DNA from: an uncultured Candidatus Saccharibacteria bacterium
GTDB taxonomy: Bacteria > Patescibacteriota > UBA1384 > XYA2-FULL-43-10 > 1-14-0-10-43-13
Assembly: GCA_964406145.1 (NCBI GenBank)
Contig: CAYOQP010000005.1
Span: forward strand, 834 to 64,833
Length of the DNA: 64,000 nucleotides
Reading direction: 5' to 3'
This document shows positions 916 to 11,816 of this stretch, in pieces (within the stretch, counting starts at the first letter, position 1; each line of letters starts with the position of its first letter). Below the pieces are notes generated by a model. That model did no database searches and was not told where the DNA came from. It saw only the letters and a program-made list of their open reading frames with translations. Both the position numbers and the translations under genes were made by a program.

Positions 916-1368
916 TTAGTCTAACGGGATAAAAAACCAGATGCCGTTGGCAATTACAAATATAATTATTCCCCAAATATCCCAAGCTTTCTGATTGGCT
1001 ATGAATTCTTTTTTGCTCTCCCATTTCCTGCTCTCCCATGCTATCTGCCTGCCTTTTATGCCAAAAATAATTATCATAATAAACCAAACAATTAACCCTA
1101 TAGTGCCAAAAGCAGTATCATCACTCTTTAATAAACCATTCATAACCATCCCCAGAACGAATAACCATCCCCAAAACGGATATTTCATTCCGCAGAAATA
1201 AATCCATCCTAGACCAAATGCGCCCCAAGACCATCTCTCGTGCGGTCTTTTTGTTGTTTCGCCCTCTCCAGAACTATCAGCTCCATGGTTCAAATGCGAA
1301 GATTCTCCGCAATGGATACAAAATTTAGAATCATTATCAATTTCCTTGCCACAATGCCTACAATACAT
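916..1368 (-). CDS. Zinc-ribbon domain membrane protein
   Basis: N-terminus MYCRHCGKEIDNDSKFCIHCGE (CxxC-x11-CxxC zinc ribbon), followed by about 4 hydrophobic helices. Paralogous N-terminus to its two neighbours. Confidence 0.5.
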   Translation of the reverse strand: MYCRHCGKEIDNDSKFCIHCGESSHLNHGADSSGEGETTKRPHERWSWGAFGLGWIYFCGMKYPFWGWLFVLGMVMNGLLKSDDTAFGTIGLIVWFIMIIIFGIKGRQIAWESRKWESKKEFIANQKAWDIWGIIIFVIANGIWFFIPLD

Positions 1369-1375
1369 TTTTCTC

Positions 1376-1906
1376 CTATTCTATGCACAGTTTCTTTAAT
1401 TCATCGTTTTGAAATTTATTATTAATTTCAGCCTCAAAAAAATCTAGAAATGTTGAAAAACTCTTTTTTGAATAATTATCGGGATACCAAGAAGCGCATT
1501 GAATTGTTTCAAAATCAGGGGTGCTAAAATAAGTTATGATCGAGGCATTATTTAAATCATTTAGGATTCTGGTAAGATCATCTTTATTTTTCTCTGATTT
1601 CATCGTTTTGATAGTGTATACGGAAACGATTGTTATGACTGGAAATTGATGAAAATATGAGATAATTAAATTTGGATGGTTAACATGCGTTGCTGTAAAT
1701 AGAATACGGTTTTCCTCCTTCTGATCCTCACTCATTTCATAGCCGATAAATTCGAGGTGATTTCTTATTTCTTCCAAACTTTTGGAAGCATCCATTTTTA
1801 TCGGCTTGACTTCCTCGGTTGTTTCCTCGCTGTTTACCTTTTCACCACAATGTACACAAAATTTACTGTCCGAAGGAATTGTATTGTTGCAATTTTTACA
1901 TTCCAT
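1376..1906 (-). CDS. Zinc-ribbon domain protein with soluble C-terminal domain (YbjN-like?)
   Basis: N-terminus MECKNCNNTIPSDSKFCVHCGEKV (zinc ribbon), then a soluble domain of about 150 aa. The C-terminal assignment is weak. Confidence 0.45.
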   Translation of the reverse strand: MECKNCNNTIPSDSKFCVHCGEKVNSEETTEEVKPIKMDASKSLEEIRNHLEFIGYEMSEDQKEENRILFTATHVNHPNLIISYFHQFPVITIVSVYTIKTMKSEKNKDDLTRILNDLNNASIITYFSTPDFETIQCASWYPDNYSKKSFSTFLDFFEAEINNKFQNDELKKLCIE

Positions 1907-1935
1907 AATTAATCCTTTTCAATCTTAATTTTTAT

Positions 1936-2523
1936 TTATTTCTTCGGTAATCTTCCGCCAGAGGCCAAGCATGCATCGAGAGAATTATAAGGGGTATAGT
2001 TAGTAGTTCGGTCGTAATATGTGGTGCCAGGTGCATGGCAAATACTCGTTGAACTCTTTTTTACAACACCACCACTATTACTTTGCGTGATGACCTGAGT
2101 GGTCGATGCTGGAGCTGATACTTGGACAGTTTTTGTGCCGATGAGAACAATTTTGGTCACTGGTTGTACCGTAATAGACTGTGAGACAATTGCACGATTA
2201 GTTTCCTTGCCGTCAGTATAGGTAACTTTAGATACTGTTACCTGGGCACCGTTTTTGCCCTCTTGCTTGACTTTTGTCTGAGCTTTTTCGAGTGTCGGAT
2301 CATCTTGCTGTTGAGTCTCAAAAACGATCTCGTCAGTTTTGACATCTTCTTTAACTTCGATTTTTGGTGGTGCCACCGCTTCATTACTCGTTGAGCTTGA
2401 GACAGCATCAGTTTTCGTTGCATCGCATCCAGAAAGAGCAATCGAAAAGACGATCGCTATAATTGCATAGTTCAGTATCTTAATAAAACTTATGTTCTTC
2501 TCCCTCCCCTTTGAGTCAAACAT
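1936..2523 (-). CDS. Secreted lipoprotein with G5-like domain
   Basis: Signal peptide ending in LSGC (lipobox-like). The segment GKNGAQVTVSKVTYTDGKETNRAIVSQSITVQPVTKIVLIGTK resembles a G5 domain. The tail is Cys-containing. Confidence 0.4.
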   Translation of the reverse strand: MFDSKGREKNISFIKILNYAIIAIVFSIALSGCDATKTDAVSSSTSNEAVAPPKIEVKEDVKTDEIVFETQQQDDPTLEKAQTKVKQEGKNGAQVTVSKVTYTDGKETNRAIVSQSITVQPVTKIVLIGTKTVQVSAPASTTQVITQSNSGGVVKKSSTSICHAPGTTYYDRTTNYTPYNSLDACLASGGRLPKK

Positions 2524-2638
2524 TTTTATCCAGTTCTTGAGTAAATAAGCTACTTAATATATAACATAGTTAGCGGATTAGAGCAATTTTATGTTGGTTT
2601 TCTGACACGATAAAAAGATAAAAATTAAGATTAAAATT

Positions 2639-3742
2639 ATGAAAAAGTTTTCTACGGAACATTTTGAAAAAAAATATCGAACACTATATGAGAAACTTCT
2701 TTGTAAAGAAGGATTTTTAAATGATATTAAAAGCGCCAGAAAAACACTTGTATTGCCAGAAGAAGGATTTAGTGATGAGTACGAGTTTGCCTATCACATT
2801 ATTCATAATATGAATGATGATGAACTTTTTCACCTGACATTCTTTATTTATTTGGATCACGAAGCCAGCAAGAACCGAGAAGCTTTTTTCGACCTAGATA
2901 AGGAAGGGCGAGCCCCAATAATTGACGCCTTCATCAAAAGCTATAATAAAAAGAAAGAAAGATTAGAACTTATATCCAAAGCTGTGTTTGAGTTAGGCCG
3001 AGACATTGTTGATCATAACCAAATGATTCAATTAAATCCTAATCTCAAAGGAAGTAGAATTTATACGAAGCTTTCTCGGGAAACATCAAGTCTTCTTCAA
3101 AAATACTGGGGGCTTGATCTTCTTGATGAGCATATCTTTGGTCATTTGGTTGAGAAACATCTTTTTTTAGATAAATACGGGGTAAATAAATATATAAAGG
3201 AAAAAACAACTTGCCCAATGTGTAAATATATCGGGGTCACGCATTTTTCACCTGAAAGAAATCATATTGACGGAGAGATGAACGGGACTGGCAAGAAAAA
3301 ATACAGATTCAATAAAAATACCGTAGATCGACTCTCTCTTCACTTTAATAGTGTTTTCTTAATAATCAAACCATATGCCACCAAGGAAGAAACTATCCAG
3401 TATATAGAAGACAACTGGGATTGCTTAAAAGATCATATTATTGAAAAAAATACATATTACAAACAGTTTGAGGTCAATCCGAGCAAGATAAAGACGAGTG
3501 ATTTAGAGCGCAACAAATTGGTTTATGAGTTATACAAACTCTCAAAAAAAGAGGTATTAAAACGATATAAAGGGGAAGATGATTTTTCAGGAAAATATAT
3601 CTATAAAGAAACAATAATCAGTGCAATTCTAGGTGAACAATATGACATTAAAATGACAGCAGATGCAGTTAAAAAATCTGCTAGCAGATTTGCCAAAAGC
3701 ATAAAAATTAAAAAAGAACCTAAGGATATAAGGGACATTTAA
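2639..3742 (+). CDS. Hypothetical protein (island cargo)
   Basis: 367-aa ORF, AT-rich, no recognisable catalytic motif apart from CPMC..H. Followed by a clear terminator. Confidence 0.4.
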   Translation: MKKFSTEHFEKKYRTLYEKLLCKEGFLNDIKSARKTLVLPEEGFSDEYEFAYHIIHNMNDDELFHLTFFIYLDHEASKNREAFFDLDKEGRAPIIDAFIKSYNKKKERLELISKAVFELGRDIVDHNQMIQLNPNLKGSRIYTKLSRETSSLLQKYWGLDLLDEHIFGHLVEKHLFLDKYGVNKYIKEKTTCPMCKYIGVTHFSPERNHIDGEMNGTGKKKYRFNKNTVDRLSLHFNSVFLIIKPYATKEETIQYIEDNWDCLKDHIIEKNTYYKQFEVNPSKIKTSDLERNKLVYELYKLSKKEVLKRYKGEDDFSGKYIYKETIISAILGEQYDIKMTADAVKKSASRFAKSIKIKKEPKDIRDI

Positions 3743-3787
3743 ATTCCACTTTTTTTAAAGTAAGTATTTATAAAATTTCGATAAAGG

Positions 3788-3814
3788 CACACTGACATCA
3801 CAGTGTGTTTTTTT
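3788..3814 (+). terminator. Rho-independent terminator
   Basis: cacactg-acatca-cagtgtg stem-loop followed by a T7 run. Confidence 0.6.
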
Positions 3815-3846
3815 GTTACCAAATTAATATTAAAGAAAGGCATCTC

Positions 3847-4092
3847 ATGCAGAGAATCCAAGAAAATGATCTCTTTAGGTCAAGTGATCTGAGCTTGTCA
3901 GCCGTAATTTCAATGAGCTATCCGGTGGACACGCTCGATAAGTCGGACTCGAGCAAGGTCATCTTCCTGTTTCGTCGAGAAACAGGGCTTGATGAACTAG
4001 TACAAGCATTTTGGGACCGGCAACTTCAAGTAGAGCCAAGAGCTTATTTTGAGGCGATAAAAATGCTCAAGTCAAGAATTTATCAATACTAG
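3847..4092 (+). CDS. Small hypothetical protein (81 aa)
   Basis: ORF 3805-4092 is trimmed to the Met at 3847 (MQRIQ..). That Met lies after the terminator and an aaagaaagg RBS-like stretch. Confidence 0.3.
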   Translation: MQRIQENDLFRSSDLSLSAVISMSYPVDTLDKSDSSKVIFLFRRETGLDELVQAFWDRQLQVEPRAYFEAIKMLKSRIYQY

Positions 4093-4108
4093 TAATAATT
4101 ATAATTAA

Positions 4109-4297
4109 ATGGCCGATTTATCAGCAAAATGTATCAAAGAGTTTACTGAGATTTACCTGCAGGAATTTCAGGTTGAACTTTCGGAGGATGAGGCACAACG
4201 AATCGCATCCGATTTTTTGCGAACTTTTGCTCTGATTTATCGGCCACTGGAAGGAAACAATGAAAAAGAAAAAAATACGCTTGCCGATAACAATTAA
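4109..4297 (+). CDS. Small hypothetical protein (62 aa)
   Basis: ORF only; tandem with its neighbours on the same strand. Confidence 0.25.
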   Translation: MADLSAKCIKEFTEIYLQEFQVELSEDEAQRIASDFLRTFALIYRPLEGNNEKEKNTLADNN

Positions 4298-4529
4298 ATT
4301 ATGGCACAAGGGTAAATTGATCCATCGGTCGACTTGTACTAAAAAAACTCAAATTTTGATTTGGACACGAAGAGAAAAATGGGATAAGGCATATATTAAA
4401 GTAACTTACAAAAAAGATTACTGGAATGATTGCGACAGTTTCAACCAGTGCGGTCTGGAAAAAGCACTAAACGCTTATCTCGAAGAAAAAATGGTCCAAC
4501 ATGCACTTGGAGGCCCAGATGAATTATGA
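4260..4529 (+). CDS. Small basic hypothetical protein (89 aa)
   Basis: ORF only; K/R-rich; overlaps its neighbours in an operon-like way. Confidence 0.25.
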   Translation: MKKKKIRLPITIKLWHKGKLIHRSTCTKKTQILIWTRREKWDKAYIKVTYKKDYWNDCDSFNQCGLEKALNAYLEEKMVQHALGGPDEL

Positions 4530-4839
4530 AGAGATAGTTGGCAGGATTAAGATTGAGATAAGACTATATGAGGTGAAAATTCTCGCTCAAGTTAAGATTG
4601 ATATGGTTGATCCACCAGTGATAATCAAAGGATTAACAATAAAACGGAATGCAAAAGAAAACAAAGTCTTCGTCTCTCCTCCATCGTATTTTGCAAAGTA
4701 CAAAATGCATCCGATCATCTGGATGCCGAAAGACTTATGGACAATGGTCTGTAGCAAAATTCTCAAGGAATATTCGAACTTAACTGGCGAGAGCTTGTCG
4801 GAAGAAGAGATCGATATTTCAGAGATAGAATTTAATTAA
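4501..4839 (+). CDS. Small hypothetical protein, possibly SpoVG-like fold
   Basis: Loose pattern resemblance to SpoVG: IRLYEV..KILAQVKIDMVD..VIIKGLTIKRNAKENKVFVSPPS..HPIIWMPKD..KILKEY. Weak. Confidence 0.3.
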   Translation: MHLEAQMNYEEIVGRIKIEIRLYEVKILAQVKIDMVDPPVIIKGLTIKRNAKENKVFVSPPSYFAKYKMHPIIWMPKDLWTMVCSKILKEYSNLTGESLSEEEIDISEIEFN

Positions 4840-4840
4840 A

Positions 4841-4878
4841 TACTTATAGTTACTATAAGAAGATGTAACTATAAGTAA
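4841..4878. promoter_or_regulatory. Nested palindromes: 13-bp perfect inverted repeat tacttatagttac / gtaactataagta around a 12-bp spacer, plus internal palindrome cttatagt-t-actataag
   Basis: Seen directly. Three copies of the ACTATAAG motif (two direct, one inverted). Additional palindromes aacctt-tt-aaggtt and taact..agtta lie at 4882-4940. Confidence 0.5.
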
Positions 4879-4990
4879 TAGAACCTTTTAAGGTTAAGTA
4901 GGTATTAAATAAGTTAACTATGTAAACAGTTATCAGTAGCCCAATCGAATAGAATCTTTAATAATTTCGGTTATGTCTGGAGGTATAAAA

Positions 4991-5581
4991 ATGGGAAGAA
5001 ATTTAGCAGAACAATCAAACGCACTGAGTATATTTTGGCTCAAGAAAGAAGGAATTCTGGACTGTGAGTATAAATCAGGAGTCGTAACTTGGACGTTTGG
5101 ATTTTCAGAAAATAAAAGTAGCATCGGATATACCCTTGTTAAGAATTCAGACAATGGCAATTATATTCAGCTGAATTATACCCAAACCGATAGATGGAGT
5201 GGAGAAAAAACAAATCTTGACTACAGGATCGAGCTGACAACCACCCCATGCTATTTTGGAGGTAAGCGATATTGGTTTGTTTGTCCATTAAGCAAAAACG
5301 GTAAGTATTGTGGACGAAGAGTTGGGGTAATCTACAATATTGGCAAATATTACGGTTGTCGTCATTGCGGTAACGTTGCTTATTCGGCTCAGGCGGAGAG
5401 TAAAAAATTTAGAGGATGCACCTCAGTATGTGCTCCTGATATTGATAAAGCAGAGGCGGAAGTTAAGAGAAAGTATTACAACGGAAAAGCGACTCGAAAA
5501 TATAAAAGACTAATTAGATTGGAAGATAAATTTAATTACAATTTTTTCCGAGCCGCTGGTGTGTTCAGAAAAGAACTCTAG
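4991..5581 (+). CDS. Hypothetical protein with Cys-rich C-terminal region (putative zinc-binding)
   Basis: ORF 4973-5581. ATG at 4991 is preferred because a GGAGG SD sits 8 nt upstream. The C-terminal half has CYFGGKRYWFVCP..CGRR..CRHCGN. Confidence 0.35.
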   Translation: MGRNLAEQSNALSIFWLKKEGILDCEYKSGVVTWTFGFSENKSSIGYTLVKNSDNGNYIQLNYTQTDRWSGEKTNLDYRIELTTTPCYFGGKRYWFVCPLSKNGKYCGRRVGVIYNIGKYYGCRHCGNVAYSAQAESKKFRGCTSVCAPDIDKAEAEVKRKYYNGKATRKYKRLIRLEDKFNYNFFRAAGVFRKEL

Positions 5582-5735
5582 CTCTTTTGAAAAAGTTGAA
5601 AAAGTATTATAATTAAACTACTACACAAGACAACGAAATAGGAGTTTTTTGCAAAAGTGAGGTAACAGCCGTTTCTTGTGTAGTAACTAGAAACTTCTAT
5701 GCTGTTGCCTCGCTTTTTATAAGGAGAATATTAAA

Positions 5736-7349
5736 ATGGAACAACAATTAAGATATATCGCCTATTGTCGGAAAAGCTCGGAGGATAATCGGGAAAAGCA
5801 GGCACTCTCTATCCCTGCCCAGATCGATGAAATCACAAAACGATTTAGCGATCTAAAAATCGTCAAACATTTGGAAGAATCGCAAAGCGCTTTTGATGTT
5901 GGCAGACCAAAGTTTAATGAAATGATAAATGACCTCAAAGATGGTCGAGCAGATGGCATTATTTGTTGGCATCCTGACCGAATGAGCCGAAATCCAATCG
6001 ATGCTTCGATGATTATTCATTATCTCGACAAAGGATTTATAAAAGACCTCAAGTTTTGTTCCTATAGCTTTACCAACGATCCAGAAGGCAAGATGTTTCT
6101 AAATTTTACCTTGAGCCAATCAAAATATTTCTCTGATAAGCTCTCAAAGGATGTTAAGCGTGGTTTGGAGAAAAAAATCAGGGATGGCTATCCATCTGGC
6201 GTGGTTCCTGTCGGTTATCTAAATTCGAAATATAATGACGGCAAAGGCAAGCAAGAAGCATTTATTGACCCCGATAGATTTGACCAAGTCCGAAAGCTTT
6301 GGGAAATGCTCCTGACTGGCAGATATACCGTCCCAGAGCTCTGGCGGATCGCTGATAAAGAGTGGCACTTTTCAACCATCAAAAGAAACCGAACCGGAGG
6401 CACGCCGATTTCTCGTTCTGGCCTGTATTCCGTTTTTACCAACCCATTTTATTATGGTGAGATTGTCTGGAATGGGATAAGAGCAGATGGAAAGCATCAG
6501 CCGATGATAACGCCAGAAGAGTTTGACCTTGCTCAAGAAATTCTTGGCCGAAAAGGCAAGCCAAGACCTCAAATTCATAAGTTTGCCTATACTGGTCGAA
6601 TAGTTTGCGGTGAATGTGGGGCTATGGTTACTGCTGAAAATAAAAAGAAAGTTTTGGCTAATGGTGAAGTCAAGAGATACAAGCTCTATCACTGCTCACA
6701 TAGAAAAAAAGATACTGATTGCCGCCAAGGATCAGTGCAAGAGGACTATTTTGAGGATTTGATCAAAAAGGAACTAAAAAACATAACTATTCCGGCGAAG
6801 TTTCAGGAATGGGCAATCGAATATCTTCACGAACTAAACGAAAGCGAAGTTAAAGACAGATCAACTATTTATAAAAACACCGAGAAGAGATTTTCGGAAG
6901 TTCAAGATCAACTCGATCGCTTAACAAGCGCACTAATCAAAGGCCTGATTGAAGAGGATGAATTTAAAAAGAAAAAAGACGAATTGATGCAGGCCAAGGG
7001 CAGATTAAAAAGTGAGATTAATAATACTGACAAGAGAGCCGACCACTGGCTTGAGACAACACTAGAATATTTTGACTTTGCCAGACATGCGGCAGATCGC
7101 TTCAATCACGGCGACCTCGAAGAAAAGAAACAAATTTTTGCTACTTTTGGTTCGAGCTACATACTAAAAGACAAAAAGCTAACGCTGGAAGTGAAGAAGC
7201 CACTCGTAAGGATAAAAGATGGTCTCGAAAAAATAAAAGCCGCTTATCCTAGGTTCGAACTAGAAATAAACGGCTCTCACAGTCACAAAACACCTGACTT
7301 ATTGGCAATACAACAACTATGGCTCCCCGAACTGGACTCGAACCAGTAA
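5736..7349 (+). CDS. Large serine recombinase (resolvase/invertase N-domain + recombinase domain + zinc ribbon)
   Basis: N-terminus YIAYCRKSSEDNREKQALSIPAQ carries the catalytic-Ser motif of serine recombinases. The size is 537 aa. CGECG..C..H zinc-ribbon region at residues 290-320. The last 30 nt overlap the 3' end of the tRNA-Asn. Confidence 0.85.
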   Translation: MEQQLRYIAYCRKSSEDNREKQALSIPAQIDEITKRFSDLKIVKHLEESQSAFDVGRPKFNEMINDLKDGRADGIICWHPDRMSRNPIDASMIIHYLDKGFIKDLKFCSYSFTNDPEGKMFLNFTLSQSKYFSDKLSKDVKRGLEKKIRDGYPSGVVPVGYLNSKYNDGKGKQEAFIDPDRFDQVRKLWEMLLTGRYTVPELWRIADKEWHFSTIKRNRTGGTPISRSGLYSVFTNPFYYGEIVWNGIRADGKHQPMITPEEFDLAQEILGRKGKPRPQIHKFAYTGRIVCGECGAMVTAENKKKVLANGEVKRYKLYHCSHRKKDTDCRQGSVQEDYFEDLIKKELKNITIPAKFQEWAIEYLHELNESEVKDRSTIYKNTEKRFSEVQDQLDRLTSALIKGLIEEDEFKKKKDELMQAKGRLKSEINNTDKRADHWLETTLEYFDFARHAADRFNHGDLEEKKQIFATFGSSYILKDKKLTLEVKKPLVRIKDGLEKIKAAYPRFELEINGSHSHKTPDLLAIQQLWLPELDSNQ

Positions 7350-7394
7350 CCTTCGCGTTAACAGCGCGCTGCTCTGCCATTGAGCTATCGGGGA
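7320..7394 (-). tRNA. tRNA-Asn (anticodon GTT), CCA encoded
   Basis: Reverse complement TCCCCGATAGCTCAATGGCAGAGCAGCGCGCTGTTAACGCGAAGGTTACTGGTTCGAGTCCAGTTCGGGGAGCCA. Acceptor stem TCCCCGA/TCGGGGA, D arm GCTC..GAGC, anticodon loop CTGTTAA, T arm ACTGG-TTCGAGT-CCAGT. Confidence 0.8.
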
Positions 7395-10094: not shown

Positions 10095-11816
10095 CTATTT
10101 TATCAAGCTCGAAAACTCTGACAGGAGTTTCTTAACCAGAGCCTTATCTCCCTTTGATTCTGCCTCGTGAATTTTTCTAGCATAAGTATCTTTAATGTCT
10201 TCTTTTTGATCCTGTTTGATACGGCCGATCAAATAAAGTAGCTCCGATGAAATGGTTTCTGTATTGTCAGAGTCGATATTTTCAAGAGCCGAGACAGCCA
10301 GCTGGTCAAGAATAAAAGCCAATTCTGGCTTAATTTTATCTCGCTCTATCTCCTTATCTTTGATCATTTTAGTAAAGACAGAAAATTTTTCATCAGAAAA
10401 AGAGAAATCGGCTGGAACATTTTTAACAAGTTCTGGATTAGCCCAGATCAGGCCAAGAATTCTCTCGGACACAGAAATTTTTTCGGGCGCGACCTCTTCT
10501 TCAGTCTTGTTATGAGAAAATTCACTGTCTGTCTTTGATTTTTCTAGGGCATCTATTAAAGAATTCTCAGAAATAGAAAGCTTTTCGGAAAGATATTTTA
10601 TATAATGCTCTTTTTCGATATCGGAGAGAATTATTTTAATTACTGGCAAAATTTCTTTGGCAATTATTTTTTTCTCAGAAACTCCAAGCTCTTTGCCATC
10701 TGTCAGTCCATCAATCCAATATTCCAACGACGGCTTAGCCCTTTTGACGGCTTGTTCCCAATTTTTGGGATCGGCCTTAATCGCTTCATCGGCGTCTTTG
10801 AATGGTGCGGTGGTGATAATTTTAGTCGAAATATCGTTTTGCAAAGCAACCCTAACAGCTCTCTTCATTGCCGTCTGGCCAGCGTTATCAGTATCAAAAC
10901 AAAGAGCAATCAGCGATGAATACCGAGACAGAGTTTTCAATTGATCCAATGTGAGCGCAGTTCCAGATGTCGCTACAACATTTCGAAATCCGGCCTGATG
11001 GCAAGCTATAACATCCATATTGCCTTCGACCATGATCGCGAGATTGGCTTCTTTGATCGCCGTCTTGGCCTTGTCCAAACCATAAATGGTTTTGCCCTTA
11101 GTATAGATTGGCGACTCTGCAGAATTGATATATTTGGCACTCTTGCCGTCATCTTCAAGTATTCGCGAAGTAAAAGCGACTGTTGCGCCCATCGGATTAT
11201 TAATCGGAAATATAATTCTGCCACGGAATCGATCATAGACCTTGCCTTGCTCGGCCCTGATCGCCACTCCAGCCTCAACAATCTCTGTTTCGTTATATTT
11301 TTTAGAAATTAAAAATCTGAGCAAAAAGTCCCAAGAAGCCGGAGCATAGCCAATTTCGAAAGTCTCGATTGTCTTGGCTGACATTCCCCTATTTTTCAAA
11401 TATTCCCTAGCCTTCTCAGCTTTGGGATGATCAACCAGAATCTTGTGATAGACCTTTTTGGCCCATTCGTTGATCTCGAATATCCTAGTTTTTTTGTCGG
11501 CTTTGTACTCCTTTTGACCAAAAGAGACCGAATTTGACTTAAGCTCCACTCCAGCCCTTTCAGCCAGAAGTTTCAGGGCGTTATAGAAGTCTAGTCCTTC
11601 CATTTTTTCGACGAAGGTAATGACATCGCCACCCTCACCACAACCGAAACATTTGAAAGTCTGACGTTCTGGCGAGATCATAAACGAAGGACTCTTTTCA
11701 TTATGAAAAGGACATGGAGCTTTATAATTAGTCCCGGCTTTTTTCAAAGTTAAATAGGTCGAAATAACTTCAACAATATCAATTCTGTCTTTTACTTCTT
11801 GTACCTGATCATTCAT
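10095..11816 (-). CDS. dnaG: DNA primase DnaG
   Basis: Zinc-binding CPFHNEKSPSF motif, TOPRIM region (MVEGNMDVIA), 573 aa. Overlaps alr by 4 nt. Confidence 0.95.
   Translation of the reverse strand: MNDQVQEVKDRIDIVEVISTYLTLKKAGTNYKAPCPFHNEKSPSFMISPERQTFKCFGCGEGGDVITFVEKMEGLDFYNALKLLAERAGVELKSNSVSFGQKEYKADKKTRIFEINEWAKKVYHKILVDHPKAEKAREYLKNRGMSAKTIETFEIGYAPASWDFLLRFLISKKYNETEIVEAGVAIRAEQGKVYDRFRGRIIFPINNPMGATVAFTSRILEDDGKSAKYINSAESPIYTKGKTIYGLDKAKTAIKEANLAIMVEGNMDVIACHQAGFRNVVATSGTALTLDQLKTLSRYSSLIALCFDTDNAGQTAMKRAVRVALQNDISTKIITTAPFKDADEAIKADPKNWEQAVKRAKPSLEYWIDGLTDGKELGVSEKKIIAKEILPVIKIILSDIEKEHYIKYLSEKLSISENSLIDALEKSKTDSEFSHNKTEEEVAPEKISVSERILGLIWANPELVKNVPADFSFSDEKFSVFTKMIKDKEIERDKIKPELAFILDQLAVSALENIDSDNTETISSELLYLIGRIKQDQKEDIKDTYARKIHEAESKGDKALVKKLLSEFSSLIK

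Follow-up and report, generated by a model that had tools for sequence, protein, structure and literature searches.

A large serine recombinase (LSR) appears to have put an integrative element of about 4.8 kb (2524/2560-7325) into the 3' end of a tRNA-Asn gene of a Patescibacteria (CPR) host with Berkelbacteria among its relations, a reading to which we give a probability of roughly three in four. Throughout, the window is the whole 64-kb stretch of DNA that was analysed. The status of the element is based on related elements of about 5 kb at tRNA-Asn, on unoccupied tRNA-Asn genes that occur in relatives, on one relative that is bounded on both sides, and on low GC content. The first-pass annotation, which had proposed an integrated element with a recombinase at its tRNA-proximal edge and cargo without assigned function, is supported in this respect.

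The integrase gene (5736-7349, plus strand) encodes a protein of 537 amino acids whose domain matches place it among the LSRs. Pfam detects the Resolvase domain at residues 8-151 (E 2e-21), Recombinase at 223-271, and Zn_ribbon_recom at 285-348; PHROG 95, named integrase, covers residues 1-492 (E 5e-73), and a phmmer sequence alignment matches residues 229-417 to the A118 integrase structure 4KIS. The protein has the N-terminal resolvase-type catalytic domain with its nucleophilic serine and the recombinase domain, zinc ribbon, and coiled coil of the LSR class. R12 and the catalytic S14 are invariant in an alignment of 47 sequences, and the ORF is intact with all of its domains. The sole recombinase in the element is of the serine type, and a tyrosine recombinase (Phage_integrase) is absent from it. 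The best NCBIfam matches, CcrB and XisF, are partial (101 bits against a cut-off of 900), and the closest deposited phage and plasmid LSRs are about 25-26% identical to this protein. As had been described, the ORF ends inside an opposite-strand tRNA-Asn(GTT) gene: its frame meets no stop codon ahead of the att site, and the TAA (7347-7349) lies within the tRNA, giving an overlap of 30 nt (7320-7349). The tRNA gene itself (7320-7394, minus strand) is intact and encodes CCA (ARAGORN and Rfam, 67 bits).

This arrangement characterizes a large clade of LSRs that is not described in the literature we searched and whose genes enter their target tRNA in a fixed frame. The LSR stop falls within an antisense tRNA gene in 39 of 83 related loci, covering 14 amino-acid specificities, and one reading register is common to 37 of these 39 (binomial P about 1e-15 against 1/3, a value that ignores relatedness). 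Because the same architecture and register recur in 37 related loci, the overlap between ORF and tRNA is not due to chance. At six more loci (L086, L111, L117, L136, L160, and L165), a minus-strand tRNA gene precedes the first in-frame stop counted from the LSR match; read-through is least certain in L086, where that stop is 956 nt beyond the tRNA. Among the 120 closest homologs, 88 (~73%) have tRNA-type C-termini and 25 have a tail of the form ..V.DVRT... The overlap measures 30 nt in the window and 42 nt in L002, its length depending on the sequence of the tRNA.

Comparison with relatives places the attachment site of the element inside the 3' end of the integrase ORF, with a probable crossover in the final ~5 nt of the tRNA (CCA plus the discriminator and first acceptor base). 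The related locus L166, whose LSR is 59% identical, has an attP-type (un-recombined) junction that reads TGGCTC|GCGAAATGG.. and encodes an alternative tail of 30 amino acids; the window and L166 share TGGCTC and diverge after it. LSR-A of L155 provides a second attP-type junction, likewise with an alternative tail after TGGCTC, and perfect inverted repeats in relatives stop 4-8 nt inside the tRNA. In the window, the crossover is predicted at about 7323-7325, corresponding to the discriminator base and the first acceptor base pair, so the element-side half of attR (P arm) would be 7279-7325. The relatives used for the predicted crossover and tail swap are mostly 32-46% identical to the window LSR. 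The host-side half-site, B', would comprise the 3' part of the tRNA, namely its acceptor and T arm, and contains the T-loop motif TCGAAC (7338-7343) at nt 19-24 counted from TGG, matching the tRNA arms of the clade. In 13 of the 14 loci read, YCGAAC is found at nt 25-29 in element-type arms versus 20-24 in tRNA arms. Serine-integrase sites show a shift of the ZD motif, which in attB is closer to the centre by 5 bp than it is in attP (Rutherford et al. 2013, PMC3783163), and the 5-bp offset of YCGAAC in the relatives matches this shift. In a sister clade, the whole integrase gene lies between perfect inverted repeats of 55-188 nt whose ends coincide with the crossover; such an integrase cassette may be invertible or regulate itself.

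A second copy of the tRNA-Asn 3' end was not found anywhere in the 64 kb (up to 3 mismatches in 25 nt; blastn-short). The earlier remark that no copy was visible near 2524-2640 holds across the whole window. The direct-repeat search proposed along with it, for 15-45 nt of the tRNA 3' end, is a test suited to tyrosine integrases; the distal 15-50-nt repeat by which classical tyrosine-type islands are recognized is absent from the 64 kb searched. A 2-bp crossover is all that a serine integrase requires, and here it is placed in the final ~5 nt of the tRNA, so the absence of a repeat is expected and is no argument against integration.

The 3' end of the integrase gene also holds an intrinsic terminator of the tRNA-Asn transcript (KIKAAYPRFELEINGS; 7228-7278, minus strand), antisense inside LSR codons. 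On the minus strand, this segment forms a fold of -22.7 kcal/mol (z -6.2) ahead of UUUUAUUUUUU, whereas the plus strand reaches only -12.5 kcal/mol and has no U tract. The terminator is conserved in L002 and L003 and is kept in L166 with paired changes; the clade mean for the best hairpin with a U run is -14.4 on the minus strand versus -4.9 on the plus strand. Folding and strand asymmetry thus show that the element brings a replacement terminator for the tRNA, placed antisense in the last ~100 nt of the LSR ORF. The unoccupied tRNA-Asn of L085 has a terminator of its own. Between L002 and L003, conservation of the LSR gene is highest in its final 120 nt (92-97% versus 53-87% elsewhere).

The element differs from its surroundings in composition and orientation. 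Its GC content is 36.5% versus 40.7%, below that of all 260 equal-sized segments outside it in the 64 kb, and every gene in it reads on the plus strand, in a region of minus-strand genes. The first-pass annotation allowed for an extension leftward to 1-1906. This is not supported: the G5 lipoprotein gene (1936-2523), which starts at 2523 on the minus strand immediately left of the element, heads a minus-strand gene run in both the window and L002, and its homologs are located among ordinary host genes. The left junction and promoter region span 2524-2638, with attL expected somewhere from 2524 to about 2560; no P'-type half-site with a matching core was found near 2524-2640, and thus no attL was identified in the window. 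Two blocks, TATATAACATAG (2560-2571) and ATTAAGATTAAAAT with the adjoining ATG (2624-2641), recur in L003 and L002, in the DNA that precedes the first large gene there, and the conserved promoter block lies ~37 nt from the host G5 start codon in the window. The Logan contig L001 spans the left junction without a break, so that sample gives no sign of an empty-site variant. Both L002 and L087 have an HTH_3 gene that is missing from the window copy, whose left part may be truncated.

Among the relatives, L002 carries a related ~5-kb element at tRNA-Asn with the same flanks and different cargo, and L003 has the same type of element at tRNA-Asn beside a different right flank, again with other cargo. 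The elements of L002 and L087 are complete, ~5 kb long, and carry an HTH_3 gene; in L087 this gene comes first, and the left neighbour is an Ltp-type lipoprotein gene. The element of L110 is bounded on both sides (1049-6403) by 49-nt direct repeats. An identical gene order in related genomes had been named as evidence against integration. On the one hand, L002 shares G5, the element, tRNA-Asn, one gene, rpoD, and dnaG with the window. On the other hand, its cargo differs, identity of the LSR gene among the window, L002, and L003 is mosaic along its length, and the right flank changes in L003. Between the window and L002, the core genes LSR, DUF5659, and p62 are 77%, 80%, and 83% identical, versus 60% for host dnaG and 48% for G5. 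No syntenic empty site was found: of the retrieved genomes closest to the window, with an rpoD that is about 90% identical, L084 and L172-L175 have no tRNA-Asn next to rpoD, and in L085 it is ~4 kb away in another context.

Six plus-strand ORFs were described upstream of the integrase gene, and all of them are present. The first, p367 (2639-3742, 367 aa), is the variable first cargo gene; its product is all-helical with an invariant CxxC (C192, C195), and a fold search against BFVD gave no structural match. The claim that the cargo has no recognizable domains fails for the second ORF (3805-4092), a DUF5659 protein (Pfam PF18903, E 7.8e-6). Translation probably begins at the ATG at 3847, which yields 81 aa, the length seen in L002 and L003; the protein is 80-88% identical in these two loci and is found upstream of the LSR in 10 related loci. 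The small helical protein p62 (4109-4297) represents an unnamed family linked to the LSR clade: an HMM derived from 21 members detects the family in 42 of the 82 related loci, where the gene either precedes the LSR in the same orientation or converges on it with an overlap at the LSR 3' end. It matches no Pfam family, and its PDB sequence matches are weak (best E 0.02). The small ORF p89 (4260-4529) has homologs in L003, L166, and L002 and no family matches in Pfam, PHROGs, PADLOC, or NCBIfam; p112 (4501-4839) is 76% identical to a 105-aa ORF in L003 and has no Pfam match. Nothing supports the SpoVG-like fold suggested for one of the small ORFs. The Cys-rich protein reported at 197 aa does exist, its length being 202 aa from the first ATG: p202 (4973-5581), a zinc-ribbon protein (CPx..C...CRxC) without a Pfam family, is encoded directly upstream of the LSR, as are its homologs in L087 (E 5e-43), L003, L088, and L159. 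Judging by linkage to the LSR, p62 is a candidate accessory or directionality factor and p202 a candidate directionality factor, and the conserved small cargo proteins are most likely regulators or recombination accessory factors. No replication genes were recognized in the element with Pfam or NCBIfam.

The window copy could instead be a fixed, immobile remnant of an ancient insertion at tRNA-Asn that lost its left att site and HTH_3 gene, was inherited vertically, and kept its recombinase by chance or for another role. The presence of an element at the same locus in L002 makes vertical inheritance of an old insertion possible, and the missing attL and HTH_3 gene, the proximity of the promoter block to the G5 start codon, and the continuity of L001 point in the same direction. 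We consider this explanation unlikely, if worth serious attention: the LSR ORF retains Ser14 and every domain, no other DNA of the gene is as well conserved as the att arm and terminator, cargo has been replaced among the window, L002, and L003 against a mosaic integrase, and the right flank of L003 differs. Moreover, the 237 nt that can be read ahead of the first gene of L003 contain no HTH gene either, and the element may therefore not require one.

The first-pass suggestions of a prophage (or phage-satellite) remnant or a defence island, in which the recombinase would serve only as an integrase, seem improbable to us. The integrase matches PHROG 95, L087 combines a leading HTH_3 gene with a neighbouring lipoprotein gene of the Ltp-type family known from prophages, and tRNA-adjacent islands often carry defence genes. 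However, no capsid, terminase, tail, lysis, or replication matches were obtained with PHROGs, Pfam, or NCBIfam; in PHROGs the integrase alone was significant, with no cargo ORF below E 0.05, and p367 again has no counterpart in BFVD. Relatives with the same layout of 7-8 genes are also only ~5 kb, and the size and gene order of the window element fit the complete relatives L002 and L087. A PADLOC run gave no match below E 0.01 for any cargo ORF. An incidental overlap, with an integrase gene that merely has no nearby stop and an att site elsewhere, would agree with a tRNA-encoded tail that is short and varies in length with the tRNA. It is very hard to reconcile with a register shared across 14 tRNA specificities, with repeat ends and attP-type junctions that map to the first 5-8 nt of the tRNA, and with a motif offset that suits att-site geometry, and we regard it as highly improbable.

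An integrative element whose att site lies within its integrase gene resembles several known systems in part. The phage LSRs (A118/LI, Bxb1, phiC31, and SPbeta) have the same catalytic N-terminal domain, recombinase domain, and zinc ribbon with coiled coil, and their half-site logic appears to hold in the window clade. However, they target a protein-coding gene or an intergenic site, whereas the window LSR targets a tRNA 3' end, has its att site inside the integrase ORF, and carries a C-terminal extension of ~50 aa that overlays DNA signals. The Ccr proteins of SCCmec are LSRs that place their element at the very 3' end of a conserved housekeeping gene without abolishing its function. Their insertion site, the 3' end of rlmH/orfX, is protein-coding, whereas the target here is a tRNA, and the window LSR scores well below the family cut-off. 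In Mx8 (IntP/IntX) and SSV1-type elements, as is probable in the window clade, the attachment site is within the integrase coding sequence, and integration therefore alters the gene; myxophage Mx8 targets the 3' end of tRNA-Asp and changes the C-terminus of Int. These are tyrosine recombinases with long segments of attP/attB identity and a duplicated tRNA fragment, whereas the serine recombinase of the window shares only ~5-8 nt and duplicates no tRNA fragment. A recombinase beside a tRNA had been called a classic signature of integration; that signature belongs to tyrosine integrases, and the TIGER survey counts 14 of 297 serine-integrase elements at tRNA/tmRNA genes and states that no earlier report of such sites was known to its authors (Mageeney et al. 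2020, PMC7192596). Tycheposons are tRNA-adjacent cargo elements of marine cyanobacteria with replication genes and a tyrosine recombinase, rarely an LSR. An LSR is carried by 27 of 937 tycheposons and cryptic elements (bioRxiv 2020.12.28.424599). In both accounts a serine integrase adjoins a tRNA gene, as in the window; compared by description, the available portions of these two reports give counts, without an in-frame ORF run, T-loop geometry, or embedded terminator.

With an att site in the integrase ORF and strand exchange in the terminal ~5 nt of the tRNA, the inserted element would supply those tRNA nucleotides, and the ORF would cross the junction and continue until a chance stop in the antisense tRNA. 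The invariant T-loop YCGAAC would lie 5 bp nearer the crossover in the host half-site than in the element half-site, a difference equal to that known between attB and attP where the zinc-ribbon domain of a serine integrase binds. The T-loop may thus act as a universal anchor, which would explain the spread of the clade over at least 14 tRNA specificities. The last ~50 LSR codons would be shaped mainly by DNA-level functions (att arm and terminator) and less by protein function. We tentatively read these features together as a multi-phylum LSR clade, not described in the literature searched, that may be specialized on tRNA 3' ends, with T-loop DNA as the zinc-ribbon anchor, target switching among at least 14 specificities, and a single stretch of ~100 nt that encodes attP, a replacement tRNA terminator, and the C-terminal end of the integrase. 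Excision would swap the tRNA-encoded tail (LPELDSNQ) for one encoded at the left end of the element. If this is true, the integrase would occur as two isoforms that differ in their tails, one made by the integrated element and one by the free element.

The LSR gene (5736-7349, plus strand) is complete, and its 537-aa product matches the Pfam models Resolvase, Recombinase, and Zn_ribbon_recom, as well as PHROG 95 "integrase" over residues 1-492 (E 5e-73); residues 229-417 align with the A118 integrase structure 4KIS. These matches identify it as a bona fide large serine recombinase (LSR). Its last codons, TGG CTC CCC GAA CTG GAC TCG AAC CAG TAA, run 30 nt into a tRNA-Asn(GTT) gene on the minus strand (7320-7394; CCA encoded); read in reverse complement, they are the CCA, discriminator, acceptor strand, and T arm of the tRNA. 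Six ORFs lie 5' of the LSR on the same strand: p367, a DUF5659 protein, p62, p89, p112, and the zinc-ribbon protein p202 (numbers denote length in aa). Both flanks are on the minus strand: to the left is a gene run with a G5 lipoprotein, and to the right follow the tRNA, the gene of a 460-aa membrane protein, rpoD, and dnaG. Domain matches in Pfam and PHROG, the tRNA call, and the 30-nt overlap thus confirm what the first-pass annotation had described, an LSR overlapping tRNA-Asn with same-strand ORFs upstream. No other RNAs from Rfam were found in the window or in L002 and L003, the loci with the closest LSRs. The host is a low-GC (40%) candidate-phyla-radiation bacterium, whose rpoD is nearest to those of "Berkelbacteria" and Patescibacteria metagenome genomes. 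The DnaG proteins of two close relatives (rpoD 88-90% identical; L172, 6955-9849, and L175, 6852-9755) are 964-967 aa long and carry intein-type domains (Hint_2; Hom_end in L172); the window DnaG (10095-11816, 573 aa) has none.

The overlap is a trait of the clade. The LSRs of L002 and L003, 76-77% identical to that of the window, also terminate inside tRNA-Asn, with overlaps of 42 and 30 nt, respectively; the lengths differ as each tRNA sequence determines where a stop codon occurs. A scan with the LSR alignment, taking one genome per species, yielded 80 loci, or 83 once the window, L002, and L003 are counted. Some of the 80 belong to Patescibacteria, and the others come from genomes with labels such as Gammaproteobacteria, Acidobacteriota, and Abditibacteriota. 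In 39 of the 83 loci, an antisense tRNA gene contains the stop codon of the LSR, the targets being tRNAs for Asn, Asp, Gly, Lys, Ser, Phe, Gln, Tyr, Val, Glu, Leu, Trp, Ala, and Cys. In six further loci (L086, L111, L117, L136, L160, and L165), reading on from the LSR match passes a minus-strand tRNA gene before meeting an in-frame stop; read-through is least certain in L086, where this stop is 956 nt beyond the tRNA. A single reading register relative to the tRNA is used in 37 of the 39 loci (P ~1e-15 against an expectation of one-third, relatedness ignored), with the CCA complement TGG read as Trp, and tRNA genes without CCA leave the register unchanged. This shared register accounts for C-termini that recur among the 120 closest homologs: in 51 the ending is W-x4-[D/E/G]-S-N..., where GAC TCG AAC is the T loop, and 37 stop within the acceptor strand (e.g., ..FPIMSG*). 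A distinct conserved tail, W-x-x-[I/V]-V-x-D-V-R-T, is found in ~25 of the 120. The idea that such "..V.DVRT.." tails always represent excised circles was dropped, as many of them sit in contigs of 0.1-4.5 Mb. In another related locus, L089 (11585-11744), the LSR ends in a ~40-nt tRNA-Asn 3' pseudo-fragment, and an intact tRNA-Asn begins 87 nt beyond; the fragment could be a trace of successive insertions.

Three independent observations on the sequences, namely, un-recombined junctions, repeat ends, and half-site geometry, place the crossover within the first ~5-6 nt from the tRNA 3' end. The LSR gene of L166 (59% identical protein) has ...TTA TGGCTC in common with the window and then continues with GCGAAATGGAACGATTTTAGAGCG, coding for a 30-aa alternative tail. 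In L155, where two LSR copies occur, the upstream partial copy reads TTTGGCTCC followed by CTATATTGTACCAAATCCGAAC, and the downstream copy reads TTTGGCTCC followed by GGCGGTAGGATTCGAACC, which is tRNA-Asn; the junctions of L166 and of the upstream copy in L155 are of the un-recombined type. Counted beyond the repeat end, the motif YCGAAC occupies nt 20-24 in the tRNA arm and nt 25-29 in the other arm, a 5-bp shift present in 13 of the 14 loci read, including L110. The same offset separates the zinc-ribbon-domain (ZD) motifs of serine integrase half-sites, which occupy positions 16-24 in attP but 11-19 in attB (Rutherford et al. 2013, PMC3783163). Counted back by this rule, the central dinucleotide falls at about nt 4-6, or window 7323-7325. 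In the mechanism that we propose, the zinc-ribbon domain would read T-loop DNA, which is near-invariant in all tRNA genes, and specificity would come from the acceptor-stem part; reading the T loop would offer the clade a simple route to spread over many tRNAs. In the ORF frame, TCCGAAC is translated as (V/I)RT in element arms; shifted 5 nt closer, as in tRNA arms, it yields DSN. One DNA motif read 5 nt apart thus explains both "protein motifs," and the LSR tails look like passengers of DNA constraints.

Serine integrases exchange strands at a 2-bp overlap. Since only ~5 nt of the tRNA would be replaced by identical element nucleotides, nothing detectable would be duplicated. A direct repeat of the tRNA-Asn 3' end had been suggested as a check on integration; the window contains no second copy, and for this enzyme class none is expected. 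A complete relative, L110, is a 5.35-kb element (1049-6403) between 49-nt direct repeats (1000-1048 and 6356-6403) that consist of the native terminator of tRNA-Asp and the first 5 nt of the tRNA. At the left junction of this element lies a P'-type arm (the element half-site expected at the left end). The LSR of L110 stops ~146 nt short of the tRNA, with no overlap.

The LSR 3' end also carries a predicted antisense terminator. A minus-strand hairpin of ~20 bp (7228-7278), located 45-100 nt beyond the 3' end of tRNA-Asn, is followed by UUUUAUUUUUU; its folding energy is -22.7 kcal/mol (z -6.2), compared with -12.5 kcal/mol on the plus strand, where there is no U tract. The hairpin is kept in L002 and L003, and L166 retains it via paired changes (CUAG/CUAGG to CCAG/CUGGG). 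Across the 39 overlapping loci, the best hairpin-plus-U-run 3' of the tRNA averages -14.4 kcal/mol, against -4.9 on the plus strand and -6.8 in shuffles, and energies of -10 kcal/mol or lower occur in 29 loci, against 7 on the plus strand. In L085, a relative with 90% identical rpoD, an unoccupied tRNA-Asn has its own terminator immediately after the tRNA. Taken together, the hairpins and L085 suggest that insertion displaces the native terminator and that the element brings a predicted replacement, laid over the LSR codons KIKAAYPRFELEINGS. As an explanation for the palindrome GGTTCGAAC (7252-7260), the loop of this terminator is preferable to an att core or a tRNA-like T arm. Within the LSR gene, conservation peaks in the last 120 nt (92-97% in L002 versus L003, compared with 53-87% elsewhere), which is consistent with selection at the DNA level.

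A sister clade of more than 15 loci (L131, L135, L138, L140, L141, L144, L147-L153, L155, L160, L161, L164, and L165) has the last 48-188 nt of the LSR ORF repeated in inverted orientation just 5' of the LSR start, mostly with 100% identity (e.g., L135, 4686-4832 and 3195-3049), and the repeat ends 4-8 nt inside the tRNA. The second, inverted arm, found a few tens to ~340 nt 5' of the LSR start, has an attP-type half-site next to it; this layout implies an intact inverted attP 5' of the integrase and an attR at its 3' end. An LSR bracketed in this way raises the possibility of an invertible integrase cassette. The two LSR copies of L155 are in tandem at one tRNA-Asn (1-1129, 2785-3073, 3131-4672), and the upstream partial copy, with its un-recombined attP-type junction, has the tail WLPILYQIRTFF; the junction recurs 1.65 kb downstream as a near-identical 172-nt inverted copy.

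The reading of the window copy as an element integrated at tRNA-Asn is supported. The element segment has a GC content of 36.5% versus 40.7% for the rest, below all 260 equal-sized windows elsewhere in the 64 kb, its genes are on the strand opposite to the flanks, and the identity of the LSR gene is mosaic along its length. Elements of the same type occupy tRNA-Asn in L002, which shares the flanks but has an additional HTH_3 gene, and in L003, whose right flank differs; each begins with an unrelated first gene, of 345 and 281 aa, respectively. L087, from a Saccharimonadales genome, has a ~4.9-kb element with the same layout. In the core proteins of the element, window and L002 are 77% (LSR), 80% (DUF5659), and 83% (p62) identical, which exceeds the 60% and 48% of the host DnaG and the G5 protein. 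The left neighbor of the L087 element (6196-6693, minus strand) encodes an Ltp-type surface lipoprotein, a family known from prophage superinfection exclusion, and may belong to that element. Prophage and defence-island readings, also raised in the first-pass annotation, found no support: the cargo ORFs have no family matches in PADLOC, NCBIfam, or PHROG and only DUF5659 in Pfam.

The recurrence at tRNA-Asn in L002 and L003 with different first genes and the mosaic LSR weigh against the window copy being a fixed remnant, which we regard as the less likely reading. On the other side, attL was not found in the window, none of the candidate P' arms having a core that matches; the copy lacks the HTH_3 gene; and no syntenic empty site was recovered via rpoD, G5, or the 460-aa membrane protein. 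By the rpoD route, a metagenome scan matched only distant bacteria, and the neighborhoods recovered from relatives with 88-93% identical rpoD were rearranged, without tRNA-Asn beside rpoD; G5 homologs were at most 50% identical and in unrelated host contexts, and for the membrane protein no record was found. Candidates for attL that were rejected, having neither a matching central dinucleotide nor support in L002 and L003, comprise the tail DNA of L166, a TTAGAGC match (2578-2584), TCCAGTTC (2529-2536), TGGCTCC (366-372), and a "YRT" coincidence in the p367 N-terminus. L001 (Logan SRR12261225), in which this sequence was assembled independently, ends at window 7349, exactly 30 nt into the tRNA, which is presumably k-1 for k=31, as in Logan assemblies; this position implies a graph branch at the tRNA 3' end. 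Since the L001 contig is unbroken across the left junction, the branch is probably another tRNA-Asn copy in the sample and not an empty site.

For the integrated element, the block conserved among relatives begins ~37 nt from the start codon of the G5 gene (1936-2523, minus strand). From its context, this gene is most likely host DNA, which places the left end between 2524 and ~2560. A larger leftward extent is unsupported, as the G5 gene heads a minus-strand run in both the window and L002, and its homologs occur amid housekeeping genes. The run includes two zinc-ribbon membrane proteins and a trypsin-like protease; the G5 protein itself has a lipobox (LSGC) and a C-terminal domain resembling DUF3761-type domains, which secreted nucleases carry as well. 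A 25-nt AT-rich inverted repeat (1917-1941 and 2612-2636, 88% complementary) surrounds the G5 gene and its upstream region and may be due to chance in AT-rich DNA.

Among the cargo, p62 stands out. p62 (4109-4297) belongs to a ~60-aa helical family without a Pfam model (motif MxLTxxxxxEFxxLYxxEFGxELSxxEA...) that accompanies the LSR clade in 42 of 82 loci, across phyla, either on the same strand 5' of the LSR or convergent with and overlapping its 3' end. p202 is found directly 5' of the LSR in L087, L003, L088, and L159. This linkage makes both candidate recombination accessory or directionality factors. The single-sequence structure prediction for p367 was unusable (pLDDT 37.6).

Attachment sites inside the integrase gene, with a C-terminus altered by integration, are known from tyrosine recombinases, such as Mx8 IntP/IntX at tRNA-Asp and the SSV type; the window system would resemble them in this respect, but its enzyme is a serine recombinase, whose identity to any LSR of deposited phages or plasmids is ~25%. 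To our knowledge, serine integrases are thought to avoid tRNA genes. The open-access papers searched give only rare counts of their using such genes: one survey places 14 of 297 serine-integrase elements at tRNA or tmRNA genes (Mageeney et al., PMC7192596), and another reports an LSR in 27 of 937 tycheposon-type elements (Hackl et al., bioRxiv 2020.12.28.424599). In the open-access literature, we found no description of the combination of a serine integrase ORF running into a tRNA in a fixed frame, T-loop half-site geometry, and an embedded antisense terminator.

The interest of the locus lies mainly in this clade-wide architecture and not in the cargo, which has no identifiable function. A single stretch of DNA that serves at once as att arm, antisense terminator, and protein tail would make a clear case of DNA-level constraints giving rise to apparent protein motifs. 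Serine integrases are important genome-engineering tools, and enzymes of this clade, if the proposed reading is true, would be natural integrases for sites present in every genome. Targeting tRNA 3' ends via the invariant T loop would explain how the target can change while half of the recognition is retained. The mobile elements of Patescibacteria are, as far as we know, poorly charted, and the clade would add to them an unrecognized class of small mobile elements.
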